DNA of 19,618 nucleotides, taken from a virus (Duplodnaviria; Heunggongvirae; Uroviricota; Caudoviricetes). Position 1 is the stretch's first letter; each line of letters starts with the position of its first letter. The notes below the pieces were generated by a model, which saw only the letters and a program-made list of their open reading frames with translations, did not search any database and had not been told where the DNA came from. Where the stretch lies: the IMG/VR virus record IMGVR_UViG_3300014691_000062; one strand, 5' to 3'. The translations under genes were made by a program, and so were the position numbers. Shown piece after piece: positions 2,784 through 18,250 of the stretch.

Positions 2784-3307
2784 ATGTACTCCAATGAAGA
2801 AACCAGCGAAATAGCTGCCTTCATTCGTAGTAAACCTTTTTCATCAACGCAGTAATGGATTCTTTGAAGAGTCGCAATCAATACAACTCACTAATGGAGA
2901 GACTTGTCTCACGCATGAGACAAATTTCCCGTTTGATTTAATGGACACTATAGAGGGACAGAATGCCTTCCTCACTCGAATCACATCAATTAAGGAGGTT
3001 CAACATGTTTCATTCCACAAGTCATCAGGCTGTAATTATGGCAGCATCAGTTTGTGCCACAGACCTTTTCCGCTTCAATTTGAGCCTGATTCATTTCTAC
3101 CTGACCGGCTCGCCTCTATCTTTTTAATCCCCGCTTTATCCAAATTGCATTGCCAGAATGCCGACAACAGACTGACATTCAAATCCTGACTACCTCCAAT
3201 AGTCTGACCGTACACCTATATAGTTTTAATTTTCATCAATCCATTTAACTATCGTTTAATTGTTGTCACATAGGATTCTGCCGTTTTTAACAATGCAGGA
3301 TAATAAG

Positions 3308-3601
3308 ATGAAAAAAATGTTGTTTTCTGCCGCTCTGGCAATGCTTATTACAGGATGTGCTCAACAGACGTTTACTGTTGGAAACAAACCGACAGCAGTA
3401 ACACCAAAGGAAACCATCACCCATCATTTCTTCGTTTCGGGAATTGGACAGCAGAAAACTGTTGATGCAGCCAAAATTTGTGGCGGCGCAGAAAATGTTG
3501 TTAAAACAGAAACCCAGCAAACATTCGTAAATGGATTGCTCGGTTTTATTACTTTAGGCATTTATACTCCGCTGGAAGCGCGGGTGTATTGCTCACAATA
3601 A
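3308..3601 (+). CDS. bor: Bor outer-membrane lipoprotein (serum-resistance lysogenic-conversion protein)
   Basis: 97 aa from the internal ATG (MKKMLFSAALAMLITGCAQQTFTV…EARVYCSQ), near-identical by recall to lambda Bor; lipobox LITGC; opposite strand to and just downstream of Rz, as in lambda and DLP12. Confidence 0.9.
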   Translation: MKKMLFSAALAMLITGCAQQTFTVGNKPTAVTPKETITHHFFVSGIGQQKTVDAAKICGGAENVVKTETQQTFVNGLLGFITLGIYTPLEARVYCSQ

Positions 3602-3632: not shown

Positions 3633-4116
3633 CTATCTGCACTGCTCATTAATATACTTCTGGGTTCCTTCCAGTTGTTTTTGCATAGTGATCAGCCTCT
3701 CTCTGAGAGTGAAATAATCCCGTTCAGCGGTGTCTGCCAGTCGGGGGGAGGCTGCATTATCCATGCCGGAGGCGGTGGTGGCTTCACGCACTGACTGACA
3801 GACTGCTTTGATGTGCAACCGACGACGACCAGCGGCAACATCATCACGCAGAGCATCATTTTCAGCTTTCGCATCAGCTAACTCCTTCGTGTATTTTGCA
3901 TCGAGCGCAGCGACATCACGTTGGCGCACCTGCATGTCAGTAATTGCCGCGTTCGCCAGCTTCAGTTCTCTGGCATTTTTNNNNNNNNNNNNNNNNNNNN
4001 NNNNNNNNNNNNNNNNNNNNNNNNNNNNNNNNNNNNNNNNNNNNNNNNNNAGCCAATGACATGCAGACGATGATGCAGATGAGCAGAGCGGAGATAATCG
4101 CGGTTAATCTGCTCAT
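3633..4116 (-). CDS. Rz: Rz i-spanin (inner-membrane spanin subunit), interrupted by an N-run
   Basis: C-terminal part (ORF 3633..3935) matches lambda Rz by recall; N-terminus [18 protein letters not shown] is read from the ATG at 4116, which overlaps the R stop (ATGA). N-run 3981..4050 lies inside, so the length is not a multiple of 3. Confidence 0.85.
3692..3874 (-). CDS. Rz1: Rz1 o-spanin lipoprotein, embedded in Rz in the +1 frame
   Basis: 60 aa [24 protein letters not shown]…[15 protein letters not shown]…, lipobox and proline-rich body as in lambda Rz1. Confidence 0.85.
3981..4050. other. Run of 70 N (gap or masked sequence) inside Rz
   Basis: Literal n characters in the sequence. Confidence 1.
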
Positions 4117-4589
4117 ACCTCAATCTCTCTGACCGTTCCGCCTGCTTCTTTGAATTTTGCAATCAGGCTGTCAGCCTTATGCTCGAACTGGCCATAACCA
4201 GCGCCCGGCAGTGAAGCCCAGATATTGCTGCAACGGTCGATAGCCTGACGGATATCACCGCGATCAATCATCGGTAAAGCGCCACGCTCCTTAATCTGCT
4301 GCAGTGCAACAGCGTCCTGGTTTTTCGGAGAGAAGTCTTTCAGGCCAAGCTGCTTGCGGTAGGCATCCCACCAACGGGAAAGAAGCTGGTAACGTCCAGC
4401 TGCGGTTGATTTAAGTTGCGGGTTTAGCGTGACAAGTTTGCGAGGATGATCGGAGTAATCCGTGAATAGCTCACCACCTACAATAACGTCGTAGCCGTGA
4501 TTGCGGGTTGGCTGTCGCCCGTTATCCGTTCCTTCTGACCACGCCAACATATCGAGAAAAGCTTTACGCTGGGAATTTAGTACCTGCAT
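4113..4589 (-). CDS. R: Endolysin, lambda R-type lytic transglycosylase
   Basis: 158 aa, near-identical by recall to lambda R (…QRKAFLDMLAWSEGTDNGRQ…TRNHGYDVIVGGELFTDYSDHPRK…). Confidence 0.9.
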   Translation of the reverse strand: MQVLNSQRKAFLDMLAWSEGTDNGRQPTRNHGYDVIVGGELFTDYSDHPRKLVTLNPQLKSTAAGRYQLLSRWWDAYRKQLGLKDFSPKNQDAVALQQIKERGALPMIDRGDIRQAIDRCSNIWASLPGAGYGQFEHKADSLIAKFKEAGGTVREIEV

Positions 4590-4592
4590 AAA

Positions 4593-4919
4593 TTACTCCT
4601 TAGAGCCACCAAACTTGTTACCGATTACTCGCATTGCAGCCCCACGAATAGCATCGACACCGATCAGCCCCACCCCACCACCAATGGCAACAGATAGTGA
4701 TTTAGGCCATCCGACATACTCAAGCGCGGATGCAAATGTCAGCGTCAGAGCGCCACAGAGTAAAATCTCAAGCGTTTTTCGCTTCCAGCCACCACCACCG
4801 CCAAAATAGGCAATGCGCAAGCCAGCCATAACGATCGACATAATCACTGCGCCCAGTGGTGTGTCTCCACGCCACCAGCTCTGGACCAACTCCAGCCAGG
4901 TATTTGGGTTATGAGGCAT
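4593..4919 (-). CDS. Putative holin (not lambda S-like or S21-like)
   Basis: 108 aa directly upstream of the endolysin; two to three hydrophobic segments, Gly-rich stretches and a charged C-terminus; GAGGTGAG SD upstream of the ATG. Assigned on position and topology only. Confidence 0.55.
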   Translation of the reverse strand: MPHNPNTWLELVQSWWRGDTPLGAVIMSIVMAGLRIAYFGGGGGWKRKTLEILLCGALTLTFASALEYVGWPKSLSVAIGGGVGLIGVDAIRGAAMRVIGNKFGGSKE

Positions 4920-5071
4920 TTGTAGTTATCTCTCACCTCGCTGATACAGCAGGTGCAAATTGAGGGAACATCATGTACAGCAAATTAGAAGCGGAAACGT
5001 CAAAGAAGCCGAACCAATGGATAACTGCGGAATAGACCAGGACCAACGAATCCCCAGCCCCAGAAACGACA

Positions 5072-5093
5072 AAACCCGCTCAACGGCGGGTTT
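5072..5093 (-). terminator. Intrinsic terminator-like hairpin upstream of the holin gene (tR'-like position)
   Basis: Stem aaacccgc/gcgggttt (8 bp); on the minus strand it is followed by a T-rich tract (TTTTGTCGTTTCT). Confidence 0.5.
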
Positions 5094-5209
5094 AAGCTGT
5101 GTGGCGAAGTAACCACTCTTAACAGAGTACTGTATTTTTTGCGTACGCATTAGTATTTTTTGAAGTATTATCAACACCAATTGTTCAAAACCATTAAAAG
5201 GATGTTGTT

Positions 5210-6244
5210 ATGACTGCATCAGCGACCCCCACTAATATCACTCATAAGTTTATTGTTCACATTATGAACAAGGAACAACAGGGGTTAGCCACCATTATTC
5301 CTTGTCCTTCAGAAAAACCTGTTCAGCAAGCATCAAAAGACCTCTCTAACGCACTTACTGAAAGGTACTCTGGGAGAGCAGGTAAAGGATATGGGAAATT
5401 TGAAGATGACCGCGATAGTTACCCTATGGGTAATATCGTTGATGATTATTTCGTAAATAAAACACATAGTTTTTATGATACTAGTATCCGAATGATCAAT
5501 CATTTAAAAGCCAGAGCCGATGATGAATCAATGTCTACTGGTGGTTATGTAATAATTGCCCATAATGAGGTAAATGGAAATCATTATTTGATGGTTGCAA
5601 TCCTAACTTCAGCAGTTGGCTCTTCAGTCCACGATTTTGAAATTCAAGAAAGTGAATATCTAGACATTGCTAAACTTCGAGTAGCGGGACGAATTGACTT
5701 AACTGGGCGCCAGAATGGCAAAGAGAGATATATTAGCTTTCTAAAGGGGCAAAATTCAGTAGCAGGTTATTTCAAAAAGTTTTTAGGTTGCAACGATATT
5801 CTAATTGCCAAACAAGAAACAACAAAATTACGGAATGCACTTTTAGAATTTGCTACTGAAAGAGGTTTTGAACCAGAGGCACGTGAAGAGTTCCTAAATA
5901 AGGCTCATGAAAAATTAAAAAATTTAAATCGTTCTGGTGAAACTTTCGACACTCAAATTTTTGCAAACGAGATATGGCCAACTGCTCCTGAGTTGTTAGT
6001 TGAAAAGTTAACCAATGACGATCTGGAGTTCTCTGATGGGTTCGTGCCTGATGGCAACGTTATACGTGGGCTTGTTAGTTTCAAAGGAAAGTCCAAACAT
6101 TGGTCTCTGAAATTCGAGCGTGCGGCCTTGCATGATGGCAGCGTTCTTTATGATTCAGAAAACGATAAATTGATACTTACCGAGATTCCGGATACGCTAA
6201 GATCAGAGATTTTATCAGAATTAGGTGAAGAGGATGAGCAGTAA
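5210..6244 (+). CDS. YejK/NdpA-like (NA37 family) nucleoid-associated-protein homologue, cargo gene
   Basis: 344 aa; AAGGA SD 7 nt upstream of the ATG. By-eye alignment to E. coli YejK along the length ([22 protein letters not shown] / [38 protein letters not shown]…RYISFLKGQ / YLDINHADIVARIDLT…RYLTFLKGR). AT-rich relative to the phage backbone. Confidence 0.75.
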   Translation: [344 protein letters not shown]

Positions 6245-7412
6245 AAATCAGAGAACCTTCAAAGACTTAGTGACTATTTACAAGGCCGCTACATTTGCAG
6301 GTACCCTATCTGAAGCATCACTCATTCTTTCAAACGAGGAGCTCTGTGACATCATCAACGATATCACAGAGAATCCCCATGATTTTGGCATCACCCTTGA
6401 ATCTGGCAACATTGAGTTAGGCCAAACTATAACCTTACATATAACCCCCCCCAAATTACGATTGGGGCAGCTACATTTCTCTTTTAATGAGTATTTAAAA
6501 AATCCTAAAAATAGGATAAAGGAAGCCAGTAACTTCTTTATAATCGAACTTAATTATCACAACAGGGATAAAAAGTCGCCTGCTATTATATCCAAGTACA
6601 GAGATGTTTTGAGCTTAATTACTTTATTCAAAGATTGTTCTGCTTATTTAGATGAAACAAATTTTGAATTGGTATTCGTCGAATCCAACGTACTAAAAAT
6701 TCCAGTAAATTATTCTAGCGATGATCTTATGAATGTTAATGGAGATCTGATTCATAATTTGATCGCAAACTTTGCAGAAGATACGCATAAAGATCAAAAA
6801 CTTACTATTTTAGCAAGTAGTATAAAATCATCATGTGAATCTAAAACTAAAGAAACCTCTTTTTCCTTCATGTTAAGGGATTTAGGACAACTTTATGAAA
6901 GTTATCAAAAAGGATACAAAGTATTCGTTTCTGGTTTTTCTTACGAGAAAATACTAGATCAGTTACGAGTAGCCAAAATAGAAGAGATGGGGAAAATACA
7001 TAAAGTATTCAGTGACATACAAAATCAGATATTAGGTATCCCCGTCGCAACAATTATCGTTGCGACTCAAATGAAGCAGGCTAATGGTTGGGATAGTCAA
7101 GCATTAATAAACACAGCTGTAGTGTTGGGTGCATTGTTCTTCACTATTATGATTATATTTGTTCTATTTAATCAATGGCAAACTTTAACAGCAATAAATG
7201 ATGAGTTAAATCATAAAAAACAACAAGCAGAATATAACTTCAAGGCTATTTACGAAGATATAAAGGATACATTTGATAGTTTAACCACAAGATTGCTTGT
7301 TCAGAAAGTTGTTTTTGCCTCATTAGGAATTATAGTTTTATGTGGCTTATATCTTACATTTAGATTCTACTTTTTACTTACACCTTATGCTATTACATAT
7401 TTATTTAGCTGA
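6234..7412 (+). CDS. Membrane protein with a large N-terminal soluble domain and two C-terminal transmembrane helices, cargo gene
   Basis: ORF 6225..7412 (GTG); preferred ATG at 6234 with AGGTGA SD, overlapping the upstream stop by 11 nt. Hydrophobic helices ALINTAVVLGALFFTIMIIFVLF and VVFASLGIIVLCGLYLTFRFYFLL. Very AT-rich. No family recognised. Confidence 0.75.
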   Translation: MSSKNQRTFKDLVTIYKAATFAGTLSEASLILSNEELCDIINDITENPHDFGITLESGNIELGQTITLHITPPKLRLGQLHFSFNEYLKNPKNRIKEASNFFIIELNYHNRDKKSPAIISKYRDVLSLITLFKDCSAYLDETNFELVFVESNVLKIPVNYSSDDLMNVNGDLIHNLIANFAEDTHKDQKLTILASSIKSSCESKTKETSFSFMLRDLGQLYESYQKGYKVFVSGFSYEKILDQLRVAKIEEMGKIHKVFSDIQNQILGIPVATIIVATQMKQANGWDSQALINTAVVLGALFFTIMIIFVLFNQWQTLTAINDELNHKKQQAEYNFKAIYEDIKDTFDSLTTRLLVQKVVFASLGIIVLCGLYLTFRFYFLLTPYAITYLFS

Positions 7413-7429
7413 CGGCCAATATGGCCGTC
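7411..7429. terminator. Perfect hairpin between convergent Q and the cargo cassette (candidate bidirectional terminator)
   Basis: gacggcc-aatat-ggccgtc, 7-bp GC-rich stem, in the 24-bp gap between the two convergent stop codons. Confidence 0.55.
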
Positions 7430-7436
7430 TAATAAA

Positions 7437-7784
7437 TTACCCATGTATTATATATATAACTGCATCAATAAATCCCAATGCAGCTTGCAACTTTTTTCTT
7501 ATAGTCCCATCAGAGCATTTTCTCTTCTTCGCAATAGTGCGTAATGAGATACCGATAACATAGTGAGCAATGATTAGCTCATATTCTTCAGGCCTATATT
7601 TACGCAACCGAGCCACACAACTGTCTATCATAATGCCTTCGTCATCATCACACTGAATCCGGGACTTTTTGCCATGAGGTAAAAGTCCCTTGAAGCCAGC
7701 GGCTACCGGTTGCCAGTCCACTCCGCTATTGTCTGAAGCAGCCCAAGCTCCCCAACGATCCATTACTTCATACATATCACGCAT
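7437..7784 (-). CDS. Late-gene antiterminator Q (QuuD / phage-82 type)
   Basis: 115 aa from the ATG at 7784 (track start 7799 is TTG); GGAGAAAG SD. Matches DLP12 QuuD by recall (MRD…RWGAWAA…AAGFKGL…KSR.QC.DDD…CSDG.I.K.LQ). Confidence 0.8.
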   Translation of the reverse strand: MRDMYEVMDRWGAWAASDNSGVDWQPVAAGFKGLLPHGKKSRIQCDDDEGIMIDSCVARLRKYRPEEYELIIAHYVIGISLRTIAKKRKCSDGTIRKKLQAALGFIDAVIYIIHG

Positions 7785-13544: not shown

Positions 13545-14171
13545 ATGGAAACGGTTGGTCAGCGTATAAAAGCTCTGAGAAGAGTTACCGGAACGTCCCA
13601 GAAAGAATTGGGTAAATTTTGTGGAGTAAGCGACGTTGCTGTGGGGTACTGGGAGAAAGACATCAATACCCCTGGTGGGGAGGCACTTTCGAAATTAGCG
13701 AAGTTCTTCAATACGTCAATAGATTACATTCTTTATGGTGCTGAGTTTGAAGGCAAACTCGTCACAAACATGCGCAGAGTTCCTGTAATATCGTGGGTTC
13801 AGGCTGGGCAGTTTACTGAATGCAGGGCAGCAGAAGTGTTTAGTGAAGTGGACAAGTGGGTAGATACATCATTAAAGATTGGTGATAACTCATTTGCATT
13901 AGAGGTTAAAGGTGACTCCATGACTAACCCTAATGGCCTCCCAACAATACCAGAAGGCGCAACAGTGATTGTAGATCCAGATGCAGAACCTCGTCATGGA
14001 AAAATAGTCATCGCTCGACTTGATGGAACAAACGAAGCTACAGTAAAAAAATTAGTCATCGATGGCCCTCAAAAGTTTTTAGTGCCATTAAATCCTCGGT
14101 ATCCCAACATCCCTATCAATGGTAATTGCCTTATCATTGGTGTAGTCAAAGGAGTTCAATACGAACTCTAA
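13545..14171 (+). CDS. cI: CI-type prophage repressor (HTH plus S24 LexA-like autopeptidase domain)
   Basis: 208 aa; HTH …GTSQKELGKFCGVSDVAVGYWEKD…; S24 motifs GDSM and …ATVKKL…; overall similarity to P22 C2 / lambda CI by recall. Confidence 0.9.
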   Translation: METVGQRIKALRRVTGTSQKELGKFCGVSDVAVGYWEKDINTPGGEALSKLAKFFNTSIDYILYGAEFEGKLVTNMRRVPVISWVQAGQFTECRAAEVFSEVDKWVDTSLKIGDNSFALEVKGDSMTNPNGLPTIPEGATVIVDPDAEPRHGKIVIARLDGTNEATVKKLVIDGPQKFLVPLNPRYPNIPINGNCLIIGVVKGVQYEL

Positions 14172-14418: not shown

Positions 14419-14625
14419 ATGCACAAAACAGAACCCAAAATCGTCGCGCCCGGATACACAAATGAGGAAATTTACGAGTGGATGGCAAAGAAGCTGGCAG
14501 CTATAAACCAGCTTCGTGAAGTGCTGTCTTATCGACAGGAAACAATAGACTCCTTAAAAAAACTGGATCAGGAAATCACGGTTTTATCACAGGATGTTAC
14601 TTTAGATATTGTGCAGACAAATTAG
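14419..14625 (+). CDS. Small hypothetical protein in the position normally held by N
   Basis: 68 aa from the ATG at 14419 with GGAGGTG SD (track start 14404 is TTG). No arginine-rich motif, so not N-like. AT-rich. Confidence 0.5.
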   Translation: MHKTEPKIVAPGYTNEEIYEWMAKKLAAINQLREVLSYRQETIDSLKKLDQEITVLSQDVTLDIVQTN

Positions 14626-15031
14626 GATCCCATTCATTTTCGTCAAAATCATCAAAGTGATGAATTTGTGATCTCCAGTCTCGATAATCTAAAAATTTCT
14701 GGGCGGTTACGCTTATTTTATCAAGTGTGAGTTCATCCTGAATTGAAAGAAGAAGTTCATCAAATTTCATCTCATTAATCTGTTTTGGCATCCAGTGATG
14801 CTTCATCAGAATAAGGTGAACCAGAGCCTTTTTCCCATTCAACTGATTATAGGGAGTGCCGAATTTCTTCCGGTGCTCATGTAAGACAAGGTCCAGAAGA
14901 GTAAGTAATGTTGCCCTTGATTCCACTTTGCTTATTTCGACTGATGACACTACCCCACTGATTTCAATGCCCCGATACTTTCCAACATTTTCACAGTGGG
15001 ATTTGTACAGCGTGTAGATATTACCGGACAT
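14597..15031 (-). CDS. Hypothetical protein, convergent with and overlapping the preceding ORF
   Basis: 144 aa, ATG with AGGA-type SD; acidic C-terminus (…HHFDDFDENEWDPN…); AT-rich; antisense to the early-left operon. Confidence 0.55.
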   Translation of the reverse strand: MSGNIYTLYKSHCENVGKYRGIEISGVVSSVEISKVESRATLLTLLDLVLHEHRKKFGTPYNQLNGKKALVHLILMKHHWMPKQINEMKFDELLLSIQDELTLDKISVTAQKFLDYRDWRSQIHHFDDFDENEWDPNLSAQYLK

Positions 15032-16770: not shown

Positions 16771-17120
16771 TGGAGCCATACAGCCTCACACTCGATGAGG
16801 CCTGTCATTTTCTCAAGATATCCAGACCGACTGCCATTAACTGGATACGCACAGGGCGTCTTCAGGCAACACGTAAAGATCCCACTAAGAATAAATCTCC
16901 TTACCTCACAACACGACAAGCCTGCATTGCGGCTCTTCAGTCTCCGCTGCATACTGTCCAGGTGAGCGCGGGTGATGGCATAACAGAGGAAAGAAAATGT
17001 CACTCTTCCGCAGAGGTGAAATATGGTACGCCAGTTTCACATTGCCGAACGGTAAAAGATTTAAACAGTCTCTTGGAACAAAGGACAAAAGGCAGGCGAC
17101 AGAACTCCATGACAAGCTAA
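16770..17120 (+). CDS. xis: Excisionase (P22-type Xis)
   Basis: 116 aa from the ATG at 16770 ([33 protein letters not shown]…); HTH and position immediately upstream of int. The ORF overlaps the int start by 124 nt, so the true C-terminus may differ. Confidence 0.8.
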
Positions 17121-18160
17121 AGGCTGAAGCATGGCGGGTCAGCAAACTTGGTGAAATACCTGATATAACGTTCGAGGAAGCTTGTGTCAGGTGGCTTGAA
17201 GAGAAAGCACATAAAAAATCACTGGACGATGACAAAAGCCGGATCGGATTCTGGCTTCAACATTTCGCAGGAATGCAACTAAGAGACATTACTGAATCAA
17301 AAATTTATTCAGCAATGCAGAAAATGACGAACCGGCGTCATGAGGAAAACTGGAAACTCAGGGCAGAAGCATGCAGAAAAAAAGGGAAACCTGTTCCAGA
17401 ATACACGCCAAAACCAGCGTCCGTTGCAACGAAGGCTACGCATCTTTCATTTATAAAGGCCCTACTAAGAGCCGCAGAGCGTGAATGGAAAATGCTGGAT
17501 AAGGCACCAATTATTAAAGTGCCTCAACCAAAGAATAAACGGATCCGCTGGCTGGAGCCCCATGAAGCACAAAGGCTGATTGATGAATGTCCGGAGCCAT
17601 TAAAGTCTGTTGTTGAATTTGCACTGGCAACAGGCTTAAGACGCTCGAACATCATCAACCTTGAATGGCAACAAATAGATATGCAGCGCCGGGTGGCATG
17701 GATAAACCCGGAAGAGAGTAAATCAAACCGCGCAATTGGCGTTGCGCTGAATGATACTGCATGTCGCGTATTGAAAAAACAAATCGGGAATCATCACCGT
17801 TGGGTATTTGTGTACAAGGAAAGCTGTACCAAACCAGACGGAACGAAAGCGCCAACAGTAAGGAAGATGCGGTATGACGCAAACACAGCCTGGAAAGCGG
17901 CGCTGAGACGGGCTGGTATTGATGATTTCAGATTTCACGACTTGAGACACACCTGGGCAAGTTGGCTGGTTCAAGCCGGAGTCCCGTTGTCAGTGTTACA
18001 GGAAATGGGAGGCTGGGAGTCTATCGAAATGGTTCGTCGATATGCTCACCTTGCACCTAATCACCTTACCGAACACGCACGGCAAATAGACTCGATCCTG
18101 AACCCATCGGTCCCAAATTTGTCCCAGTCAAAAAATAAGGAAGGTACTAATGATGTGTAA
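16997..18160 (+). CDS. int: Tyrosine site-specific integrase (P22-type Int)
   Basis: 387 aa; catalytic region …[16 protein letters not shown]…MVRRYAHL…; high similarity to P22 Int by recall; ends 14 bp before the 3' end of thrW. Confidence 0.95.
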
Positions 18161-18250
18161 CTTATTGATTTTAATGGTGCCGATAATAGGAGTCGAACCT
18201 ACGACCTTCGCATTACGAATGCGCTGCTCTACCAACTGAGCTATATCGGC
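18161..18250. other. Putative attL (core expected to overlap the 3' part of thrW)
   Basis: Junction between the int stop and the tRNA; P22-type integrases are known to target the 3' end of thrW. Exact core boundaries cannot be set without attR or attB. Confidence 0.45.
18175..18250 (-). tRNA. thrW: tRNA-Thr (anticodon CGU)
   Basis: 76-nt minus-strand sequence GCCGATATAGCTCAGTTGGTAGAGCAGCGCATTCGTAATGCGAAGGTCGTAGGTTCGACTCCTATTATCGGCACCA: cloverleaf, CGT anticodon, encoded CCA end. Confidence 0.95.

Follow-up and report, generated by a model that had tools for sequence, protein, structure and literature searches.

The described systems that come closest to the locus considered here, a two-gene cassette (genes A and B) in a 19,618-nucleotide (nt) stretch of tailed-phage DNA (IMG/VR record IMGVR_UViG_3300014691_000062; "the window" denotes this whole stretch), are DS-1 and type II PANGU. 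DS-1 is a DefensePredictor system (DeWeirdt, Mahoney & Laub, Science 2026, PMC13092281) consisting of WP_000355468.1, a 391-amino-acid (aa) protein with a zinc-ribbon and an NA37 domain, followed by WP_000150292.1 of 404 aa (PMC13092281); the two proteins, here DS-1A and DS-1B, correspond to the NCBIfam models NF053868 and NF053869. In MG1655, DS-1 lowered plating by 7.6 logs for Bas1, by 2.7 logs for Bas26 and by 1.7 logs for Bas3 and T3, and the screen table gives a reduction of about 1 log for T5 and T7 (PMC13092281). The YejK domain is listed in the same study among the domains newly validated in defence (PMC13092281). Type II PANGU (Li et al., bioRxiv 10.64898/2026.04.06.716658) combines a YejK-like protein, Pag2A, with a transmembrane protein, Pag2B, that has an acidic N-terminal DNA-mimic (DMK) domain. 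In the E. coli system PANGU-Ecu both genes are needed and the phenotype is abortive, and T4 escapes by loss of EndoII (denA). Coating of the chromosome was shown for Pag1A and Pag2A, Pag2A fused to green fluorescent protein (Pag2A-GFP) leaves the nucleoid upon infection, and Pag2A binds the Pag2B N-terminal domain with a dissociation constant (KD) of 19 nM (10.64898/2026.04.06.716658).

An integrated lambdoid (HK97/e14-like) prophage of E. coli makes up the window; its gene order is terminase, HNH, lysis, Q, replication, immunity and integrase beside tRNA-Thr. Positions 5210-7412 hold two intact, overlapping genes of 344 and then 392 codons on the plus strand, whose products are 100% identical to RefSeq proteins of E. 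coli 50EVA (accessions in Table 1) labelled "nucleoid-associated protein" and "hypothetical protein", respectively. An earlier interpretation made from the letters of the DNA and its open reading frames (ORFs), hereafter the sequence-only reading, had placed a translationally coupled gene pair in the slot from Q to the holin, running against the late operon. This is borne out by the ORFs, the RefSeq entries and the neighbouring genes: Q, holin, lysozyme and spanin all lie on the minus strand, with the cassette on the opposite strand between Q and the lysis genes. The accompanying claim that both genes are richer in AT than the phage backbone and were acquired separately agrees with the position in a Q-to-lysis cargo slot and with the base composition, as the guanine-plus-cytosine (GC) content is 35.2% for 5160-7464 versus 50.5% and 49.7% in the two flanks, and GC at third codon positions is 30% in the cassette genes versus 52-55% in the lysozyme and DUF968 genes.

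Homology of the pair with DS-1 and its likeness to type II PANGU

Protein A had been likened to the E. coli nucleoid-associated protein YejK along its length, and a full-length profile match to Pfam NA37 confirms this (PF04245, E 8e-69, 232.9 bits against a cut-off of 24.6), with residues 15-330 covering model positions 1-324 of 325. Protein A also matched phrog_3767 over its full length (E 3.8e-80) and the YejK structure PDB 9be2 (E 1.7e-19). Because its score against the YejK equivalog model NF001557, 164.8 bits, is below the cut-off of 341 bits, protein A is not the YejK orthologue but a paralogue on mobile DNA, distinct from the housekeeping gene. E. coli YejK/NdpA has the same domain as protein A across the full length, and by NCBIfam scores DS-1A is more distant from YejK than protein A, but YejK is a stand-alone chromosomal gene whereas protein A is low-GC prophage cargo always coupled to a membrane partner.

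The second protein was said in the sequence-only reading to have no recognisable family, which holds for Pfam, where protein B has none, and for PADLOC, but not for phrog_5023, a family without assigned function that matches protein B over its full length (E 9.4e-80), nor given a weak match to NCBIfam DS1_2_antiphage (70.4 bits, cut-off 315). A PDB sequence search with the B-family profile gave no match, and fold searches with protein B returned nothing specific, no solved or viral structural relative being found for the N-terminal domain. The AlphaFold2 model of protein B, built on 17 homologues, reached a predicted local distance difference test (pLDDT) score of 82. Its N-terminal domain (residues 1-215) is a candidate docking domain for protein A and carries a net charge of -5 in the window copy, with means of -8.9 for the B family and -8.0 for the DS-1B family. 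Most of the invariant columns of the B-family alignment fall in residues 217-281, a juxtamembrane segment that the model shows as a long helix (217-279) and whose counterpart in the profile alignment is the best-conserved stretch of the DS-1B family. The two hydrophobic segments further downstream have Kyte-Doolittle maxima of 2.76 and 2.26, and in the model the C-terminal part forms helices at 288-335 and 340-382. In an exhaustive search the B-family profile matched 1121 clusters at 50% identity, 304 of them with E <= 1e-30.

Direct comparison with DS-1 gave 25% identity over 197 aa for A versus DS-1A (BLASTP, E 3e-10) and 28% over 104 aa for B versus DS-1B (E 3e-7). Family alignments were then built for both partner proteins, B and DS-1B, and their profile-profile comparison with hhalign gave 98.5% and E 2e-15 over 344 aligned columns. 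These matches indicate that A and B are distant homologues of the DS-1 proteins, and by its scores against the DS-1 models the pair is not a DS-1 equivalog. The correspondence extends to gene order, an NA37/YejK protein being followed in both cases by a partner of about 400 aa, and to the layout of that partner, which in DS-1 as in protein B begins with an acidic domain, continues with a conserved helix next to the membrane and ends in transmembrane helices. The two systems further share tight linkage and a Q-proximal prophage slot, with the same insertion point and orientation; of 5426 complete E. coli genomes, 106 carry DS-1 and 16 the window cassette. In addition, the exact protein A is entered in Table S10 of the DefensePredictor study as a "predicted novel defense gene" with a mean log-odds of 9.14, and a homologue in a different genus, 41% identical to it, has a log-odds of 11.7, both values being predictions (PMC13092281). 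The sequence-only reading had suggested a system not described before. This claim of novelty largely falls, because the pair matches a characterised system: it is homologous to DS-1, DS-1 occupies the same insertion point, and protein A was already listed as a predicted defence gene. We therefore regard the cassette as a divergent member of a kind of system described in 2025-2026, whose function we infer.

Type II PANGU resembles the cassette in being a bicistronic operon of a YejK-like protein and a transmembrane partner in E. coli. Its operons are delimited by a gap of less than 40 bp; here the genes overlap by 11 nt and protein B has two predicted transmembrane helices. The reported targets of type II PANGU, T4 and Bas34, differ from the DS-1 screen profile, and the preprint contains no occurrence of prophages, whereas most of the window family is carried by prophages where Q meets the lysis genes. 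A functional analogue only is RexA/RexB of phage lambda, a two-protein abortive system of the prophage in which a cytoplasmic sensor activates an inner-membrane partner and the membrane potential collapses; Rex lies in the immunity region and not at the Q/lysis junction, and no kinship to it in sequence or fold came up, although no search aimed at one was made.

We consider an anti-phage defence function of the cassette quite likely, because both partners are homologous to the validated DS-1 and stand at the same genomic position, because the architecture is that of type II PANGU, and because A and B are tightly linked, the acidic N-terminal domain is kept in both partner families and the DefensePredictor prediction is independent. 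In the proposed mechanism, the cassette leader would drive expression of the pair in the lysogen, and protein A, as a YejK-like NA37 protein, would coat the host chromosome. Protein B is predicted to sit in the inner membrane by its two C-terminal helices, with the acidic alpha/beta N-terminal domain in the cytoplasm. When a lytic phage fragments the chromosome, protein A would lose its DNA platform, diffuse and bind the N-terminal domain of B, and B would then harm the integrity or energisation of the membrane and abort the infection. A temperate lambdoid phage that spares host DNA would not trigger its own cargo. That this specific sensing and effector logic applies to the window subfamily seems to us slightly better than an even bet, and for the combined statement, a prophage-carried two-gene anti-phage module of the DS-1/type II PANGU class including the sensing mechanism, we estimate a probability of roughly 60%. 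The sequence-only reading had likewise pictured a DNA-binding sensor paired with a membrane effector, a view now backed by experiments on a homologous system (DS-1) and on one of the same architecture (type II PANGU).

Several points weigh against this assignment. The identity to DS-1 is about 25-28% over part of the length, the scores lie far below the DS-1 equivalog cut-offs (56.2 bits for protein A against 330 for DS1_1_antiphage, and the 70.4 against 315 given above for B), and protein A is nearer to housekeeping YejK (165 bits) than to DS-1A. DS-1A has an N-terminal CxxC...CxxC zinc-ribbon and an NA37 domain that starts at residue 42, whereas no Cys motif is found at the N terminus of protein A, where NA37 begins at residue 15. 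DS-1 has been validated experimentally, whereas defence by the window subfamily is a prediction. A PADLOC search, one of the checks proposed in the sequence-only reading, gave nothing, as PADLOC-DB v2 (2023) had no family at E <= 1 for A or B. The likeness to type II PANGU is one of described architecture, and the window cassette may be PANGU-Ecu itself or a close or distant relative; the N-terminal domain of the PANGU partner is highly acidic, whereas that of the window protein is mildly so. PANGU is the only mechanistic model for this architecture and comes from one preprint, in which the mode of action of Pag2B was left open (10.64898/2026.04.06.716658). Finally, a consensus scan of the region found no full sigma-70 promoter for the cassette, so that expression in lysogens is putative, and a related pair in a Mu-like prophage, described below, runs in the same direction as the lysis genes, so that a role intrinsic to the phage is conceivable.

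The pair could also protect the lysogen by a route other than that of PANGU, with survival of the infected cells: protein B might act in superinfection exclusion or block injection with A as its regulator, or A might sense a phage protein or phage DNA. We think this unlikely, given that PANGU-Ecu, of the same architecture, is abortive and is escaped through loss of T4 EndoII rather than through structural or injection changes, and that strict co-evolution of A and B together with a conserved acidic N-terminal domain fits a direct docking switch.

Linkage and spread of the pair

A pattern scan for B relatives, with one genome per species, yielded 45 genomic loci in Alpha-, Beta- and Gammaproteobacteria. 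A relative of A was found directly upstream of B and on the same strand in 42 of them, nearly always overlapping or abutting. Among viral loci from IMG/VR the pair is kept in 37/39, and all 19 viral loci recovered with an A query contain B. The pairwise identities among A proteins and among B proteins are strongly correlated (r = 0.94 over 65 distinct pairs; Mantel 0/2000), and the start-stop overlap and the Shine-Dalgarno sequences are kept among homologues that are 28-88% identical. These patterns indicate that A and B are inherited together without swapping of partners and that the pair is a conserved functional unit. Whether the pair recurs in other genomes was one of the checks set out in the sequence-only reading, and the answer is positive, often at Q/lysis junctions. 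The three exceptions among the genomic loci, all from Cupriavidus (L040-L042, 6004-6630), were discarded as cases of an unpaired B, as they hold 208-aa C-terminal remnants and no NA37 gene. This half of B, with the conserved helix and the transmembrane helices, is probably a truncated remnant, although a stand-alone membrane module is possible.

The cassette itself was found in 16/5426 complete E. coli genomes, with both ORFs intact and >=99% conserved in all 16, and the exact B protein occurs in 581 blocks of the assembly collection. At the ten places shown for exact B the order was always Q, then B and A, then holin; these places are mosaic prophages with differing immunity regions, plus one degraded remnant (L051). 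Such conservation bears on the idea that, in this lineage, the cassette hitch-hikes as inert DNA, either silent or decaying. Its rarity in E. coli, the truncated B remnants elsewhere and the lack of a consensus promoter in the scan would suit that idea, as would AT-rich DNA that is likely silenced by H-NS. We find it barely probable, since the ORFs are intact and conserved in every genome that has them and exact B recurs across the assembly collection, since the pair is retained even in the degraded prophage, and since overlap and Shine-Dalgarno sequences persist across distant homologues.

Related pairs occupy comparable positions in other phages. A Salmonella pair, 78% identical, lies between Q and a different holin/lysozyme of another lambdoid phage, and a Klebsiella pair, 39% identical, lies in a Mu-like prophage between a D12 methyltransferase and holin/SLT genes (L059 3991-6200). 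The Klebsiella pair is read in the same direction as the late genes, so that phage types differ in how the pair is oriented with respect to late transcription. When the two nearest genes on each side were counted for 25 non-redundant viral loci, the neighbours included Q-type antiterminators (12, plus 1 Antiterm and 2 DUF1133), holins (11), DUF968 (10) and lysozyme/SLT (5). In the broader genome set the neighbours were phage late genes, DNA methylases, a restriction endonuclease, AAA_21/15, SLATT_6 and integrases. The pair thus recurs beside Q or holin genes of unrelated temperate phages, and low GC, a prophage hotspot and, elsewhere, defence-type neighbours (methylases, restriction endonuclease, AAA_21/15, SLATT) together give it the signature of mobile cargo.

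The same recurrence beside Q and holin/lysis genes could be taken to mean that the pair serves the phage itself, by organising or silencing prophage or host DNA or by timing lysis or late-gene expression, with any anti-phage effect incidental. The Mu-like pair directly upstream of, and in line with, holin and SLT genes favours such a role, and protein B is a small membrane protein, as are holins and antiholins. Nevertheless we judge it very unlikely: the slot is dispensable, with empty sites and unrelated cargoes at the same breakpoint (see below), the lambdoid pair is opposite in strand to the late operon, the pair is also found outside prophages beside restriction-modification and Abi-type genes, and DS-1 cloned alone protects a phage-free host.

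Insertion point and alternative cargoes

The edges of the cassette were defined with blastn against sister prophages carrying other cargoes (L061 with DS-1, L119, L120 and L121; Table 1). Homology ends at 5159-5162 on the left and restarts at 7449-7467 on the right. The DS-1 locus is 89% identical to the window over 5071-5159 and 91% identical from 7465 onwards, and the cassettes substitute for each other in between; DS-1 follows the same kind of Q gene and has the same orientation as the window cassette. The flanks of DS-1 and of a third NA37+membrane pair, from strain ZY22049, are 89-93% identical to those of the window, whereas the ZY22049 pair itself is 22-24% identical to the window pair and also falls below threshold for the DS-1 models. 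The cargoes of PEC122 and strain 23713 gave no match to PADLOC or to NCBIfam defence models and may be unknown systems. In two prophages (L122 and L123) the site is empty, and a conserved backbone element follows directly after the Q stop codon. No fewer than five cargoes thus alternate at a single breakpoint, which lies between the stop codon of Q and a conserved late-promoter-like element; three of them (window, DS-1 and ZY22049) are NA37+membrane pairs with mutual identities of 22-28%. We conclude that the slot is dispensable, given prophages in which it is vacant and others in which unrelated genes take the place of the pair.

The backbone element is 85-91% identical beside all the other cargo alleles and was found in 834/5426 E. 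coli genomes. Its hairpin at 5072-5093 is followed by a T-run on the minus strand only. Its 10-bp palindrome, TGCGTACGCA at 5140-5149, occurs once per locus in the 39 fetched loci, with about one occurrence expected by chance. The palindrome differs with the Q variant, being TGCGTACGCA with a 115-aa Q and TGCGGACCGCA with a Q of 123-126 aa (L122, L123, ~3270-3285), and this symmetric difference is as expected for a cognate protein-binding site. The element probably comprises the late promoter that depends on Q, the Q site, a pause-inducing element and tR'. In that case the cargo separates Q from its promoter, late transcription bypasses the cassette, and the start signals of the cassette (TATTAT, 5166-5171) stand back-to-back with the late promoter. 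The sequence-only reading had described the hairpin at 5072..5093 as a terminator-like bracket of the cassette. The hairpin exists, but the bracketing role was rejected, since it is a minus-strand feature of the backbone, part of the element that follows Q directly in cargo-free prophages.

The three pairs at this site might be read as a diversifying allelic series with distinct triggers or resistance to counter-defence, in which the window subfamily possibly departs from the published model. The subfamily, nearest to YejK and without a zinc-ribbon, might mix with or monitor host YejK, its trigger might be something other than bulk genome degradation, and the back-to-back Q-dependent late promoter might tie expression of the cassette to the lytic switch of the prophage. 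To this possibility we assign a low likelihood, and we keep to the module of the DS-1/type II PANGU class as the preferred interpretation. If the cassette is active, the class of systems using a nucleoid protein as infection sensor gains a third, very divergent E. coli lineage. The comparison also shows these systems to be typical prophage cargo, inserted at one exact site between Q and the probable late promoter, which is apparently not discussed in the DS-1 and PANGU papers. The hotspot amounts to a natural swap experiment, since five or more cargoes and an empty site share their flanks; the specificity of three sensor-effector pairs of about 25% identity could be compared in an isogenic prophage, and the other, unknown cargoes could be mined for defence functions. 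PADLOC 2023 and the NCBIfam DS-1 equivalogs miss most of the superfamily, as the number of clusters matched by the partner profile (1121) illustrates. New here are the full-length homology with DS-1, the exact insertion point with its allelic series and empty site, the association with Q, lysis genes and prophages, and the co-inheritance.

Features of the cassette and other parts of the window

Table 1. Coordinates of the cassette, of its parts and surroundings, and of the alternative cargoes (window positions unless a locus is named).
Feature	Position	Strand	Description
GH24 lysozyme	4113..4589	-	adjoins holin
Holin	4593..4919	-	other side of cassette from Q
Conserved backbone element	5066..5159	-	~95 nt; terminator hairpin 5093..5072, invariant GTTAAGAGTGGTTAC, variable TAnnnT hexamer, palindrome TGCGTACGCA
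Exchangeable cargo cassette	5160..7464	+	2305 bp, comprising its own upstream region, genes A and B and the 3' hairpin; edges by blastn against sister prophages
Cassette-specific leader	5160..5209	+	candidate -10 TATTAT 5166-5171; Shine-Dalgarno AAGGA 5198-5202
Gene A	5210..6244	+	344 aa, ATG start; NA37/YejK-like; WP_000127202.1; putative DNA-bound sensor
Gene B	6234..7412	+	392-aa membrane partner, putative effector; WP_052516676.1; open frame from 6225
B residues 1-215	6234..6878	+	predicted cytoplasmic alpha/beta N-terminal domain; AlphaFold2 pLDDT ~90
B residues 217-281	6882..7076	+	long juxtamembrane helix; motif GY..F..FSY.K...Q...AK.EE.GKIHK.FSDIQNQILGIPVAT..VATQ.K
B residues 288-380	7095..7373	+	two predicted transmembrane helices, 288-312 and 356-380, linked by helical hairpin
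Hairpin between convergent stop codons of B and Q	7411..7429		perfect 8-bp stem
Q antiterminator	7437..7784	-	PF06530 E 5e-45; RefSeq 'antiterminator Q family protein'; context, outside the system
DS-1 cargo	L061 3501-5893		same insertion point
Third NA37 (382 aa) + membrane (408 aa) pair	L120 1576-3947		strain ZY22049; WP_120130707.1 / WP_046657265.1
87-aa + 247-aa pair	L119 2944-3947		PEC122; 247-aa protein with C-terminal transmembrane part; unrelated
Three-gene cargo	L121 3455-5182		strain 23713; TIGR04255 protein first, then two hypotheticals

The ATG of gene B (6234, the RefSeq start) overlaps the TAA of gene A by 11 nt (ATGAGCAGTAA), and an AGGTG Shine-Dalgarno sequence lies 5 nt upstream of it. 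Upstream of gene A, GAAGTATTATC and AAAAGGA are kept in loci with A proteins that are 77-89% identical, and we infer a promoter role for the leader, with TATTAT as the candidate -10. The best sigma-70 matches in the region were antisense sites within gene B, which were set aside as chance because they were fewer than in shuffled sequence (6 found versus 10.1 expected). Among antisense sites in gene B is a near-consensus TTGCCA-18-TATAAT (11/12) at window positions 7181-7152 on the minus strand, which may be a chance occurrence in AT-rich DNA.

At its 3' end the cassette, read on the minus strand, also provides the final codons of Q. The hairpin that the sequence-only reading had noticed at 7411..7429 was found there (Table 1). 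As plus-strand RNA it has a folding free energy (dG) of -16.3 kcal/mol (z -4.5, with 0/200 shuffles as good) and as minus-strand RNA of -15.2 kcal/mol (z -3.6). There is no clean U-run beside it on either strand and its role as a terminator is only putative. No Rfam RNA family was found in the cassette region.

Elsewhere in the window, a Bor/Iss-family lipoprotein gene (3260-3601, plus strand; PF06291, E 2e-30) is placed where bor is classically found, beyond the lysis genes on their downstream side; it lies on the opposite strand, has a low GC content (about 40%) and is replaced by different genes in sister prophages. A 144-aa ORF (14597-15031, minus strand) gave no match in Pfam; it is situated next to a cI-like repressor gene (13545-14171), in DNA of low GC content (about 39%), and may be further cargo, here of the immunity region, where the ORFs of sister prophages differ. 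The tyrosine integrase gene (16997-18160, plus strand) adjoins tRNA-Thr(CGU) (18175-18250, minus strand), which is probably the attachment site of the prophage.

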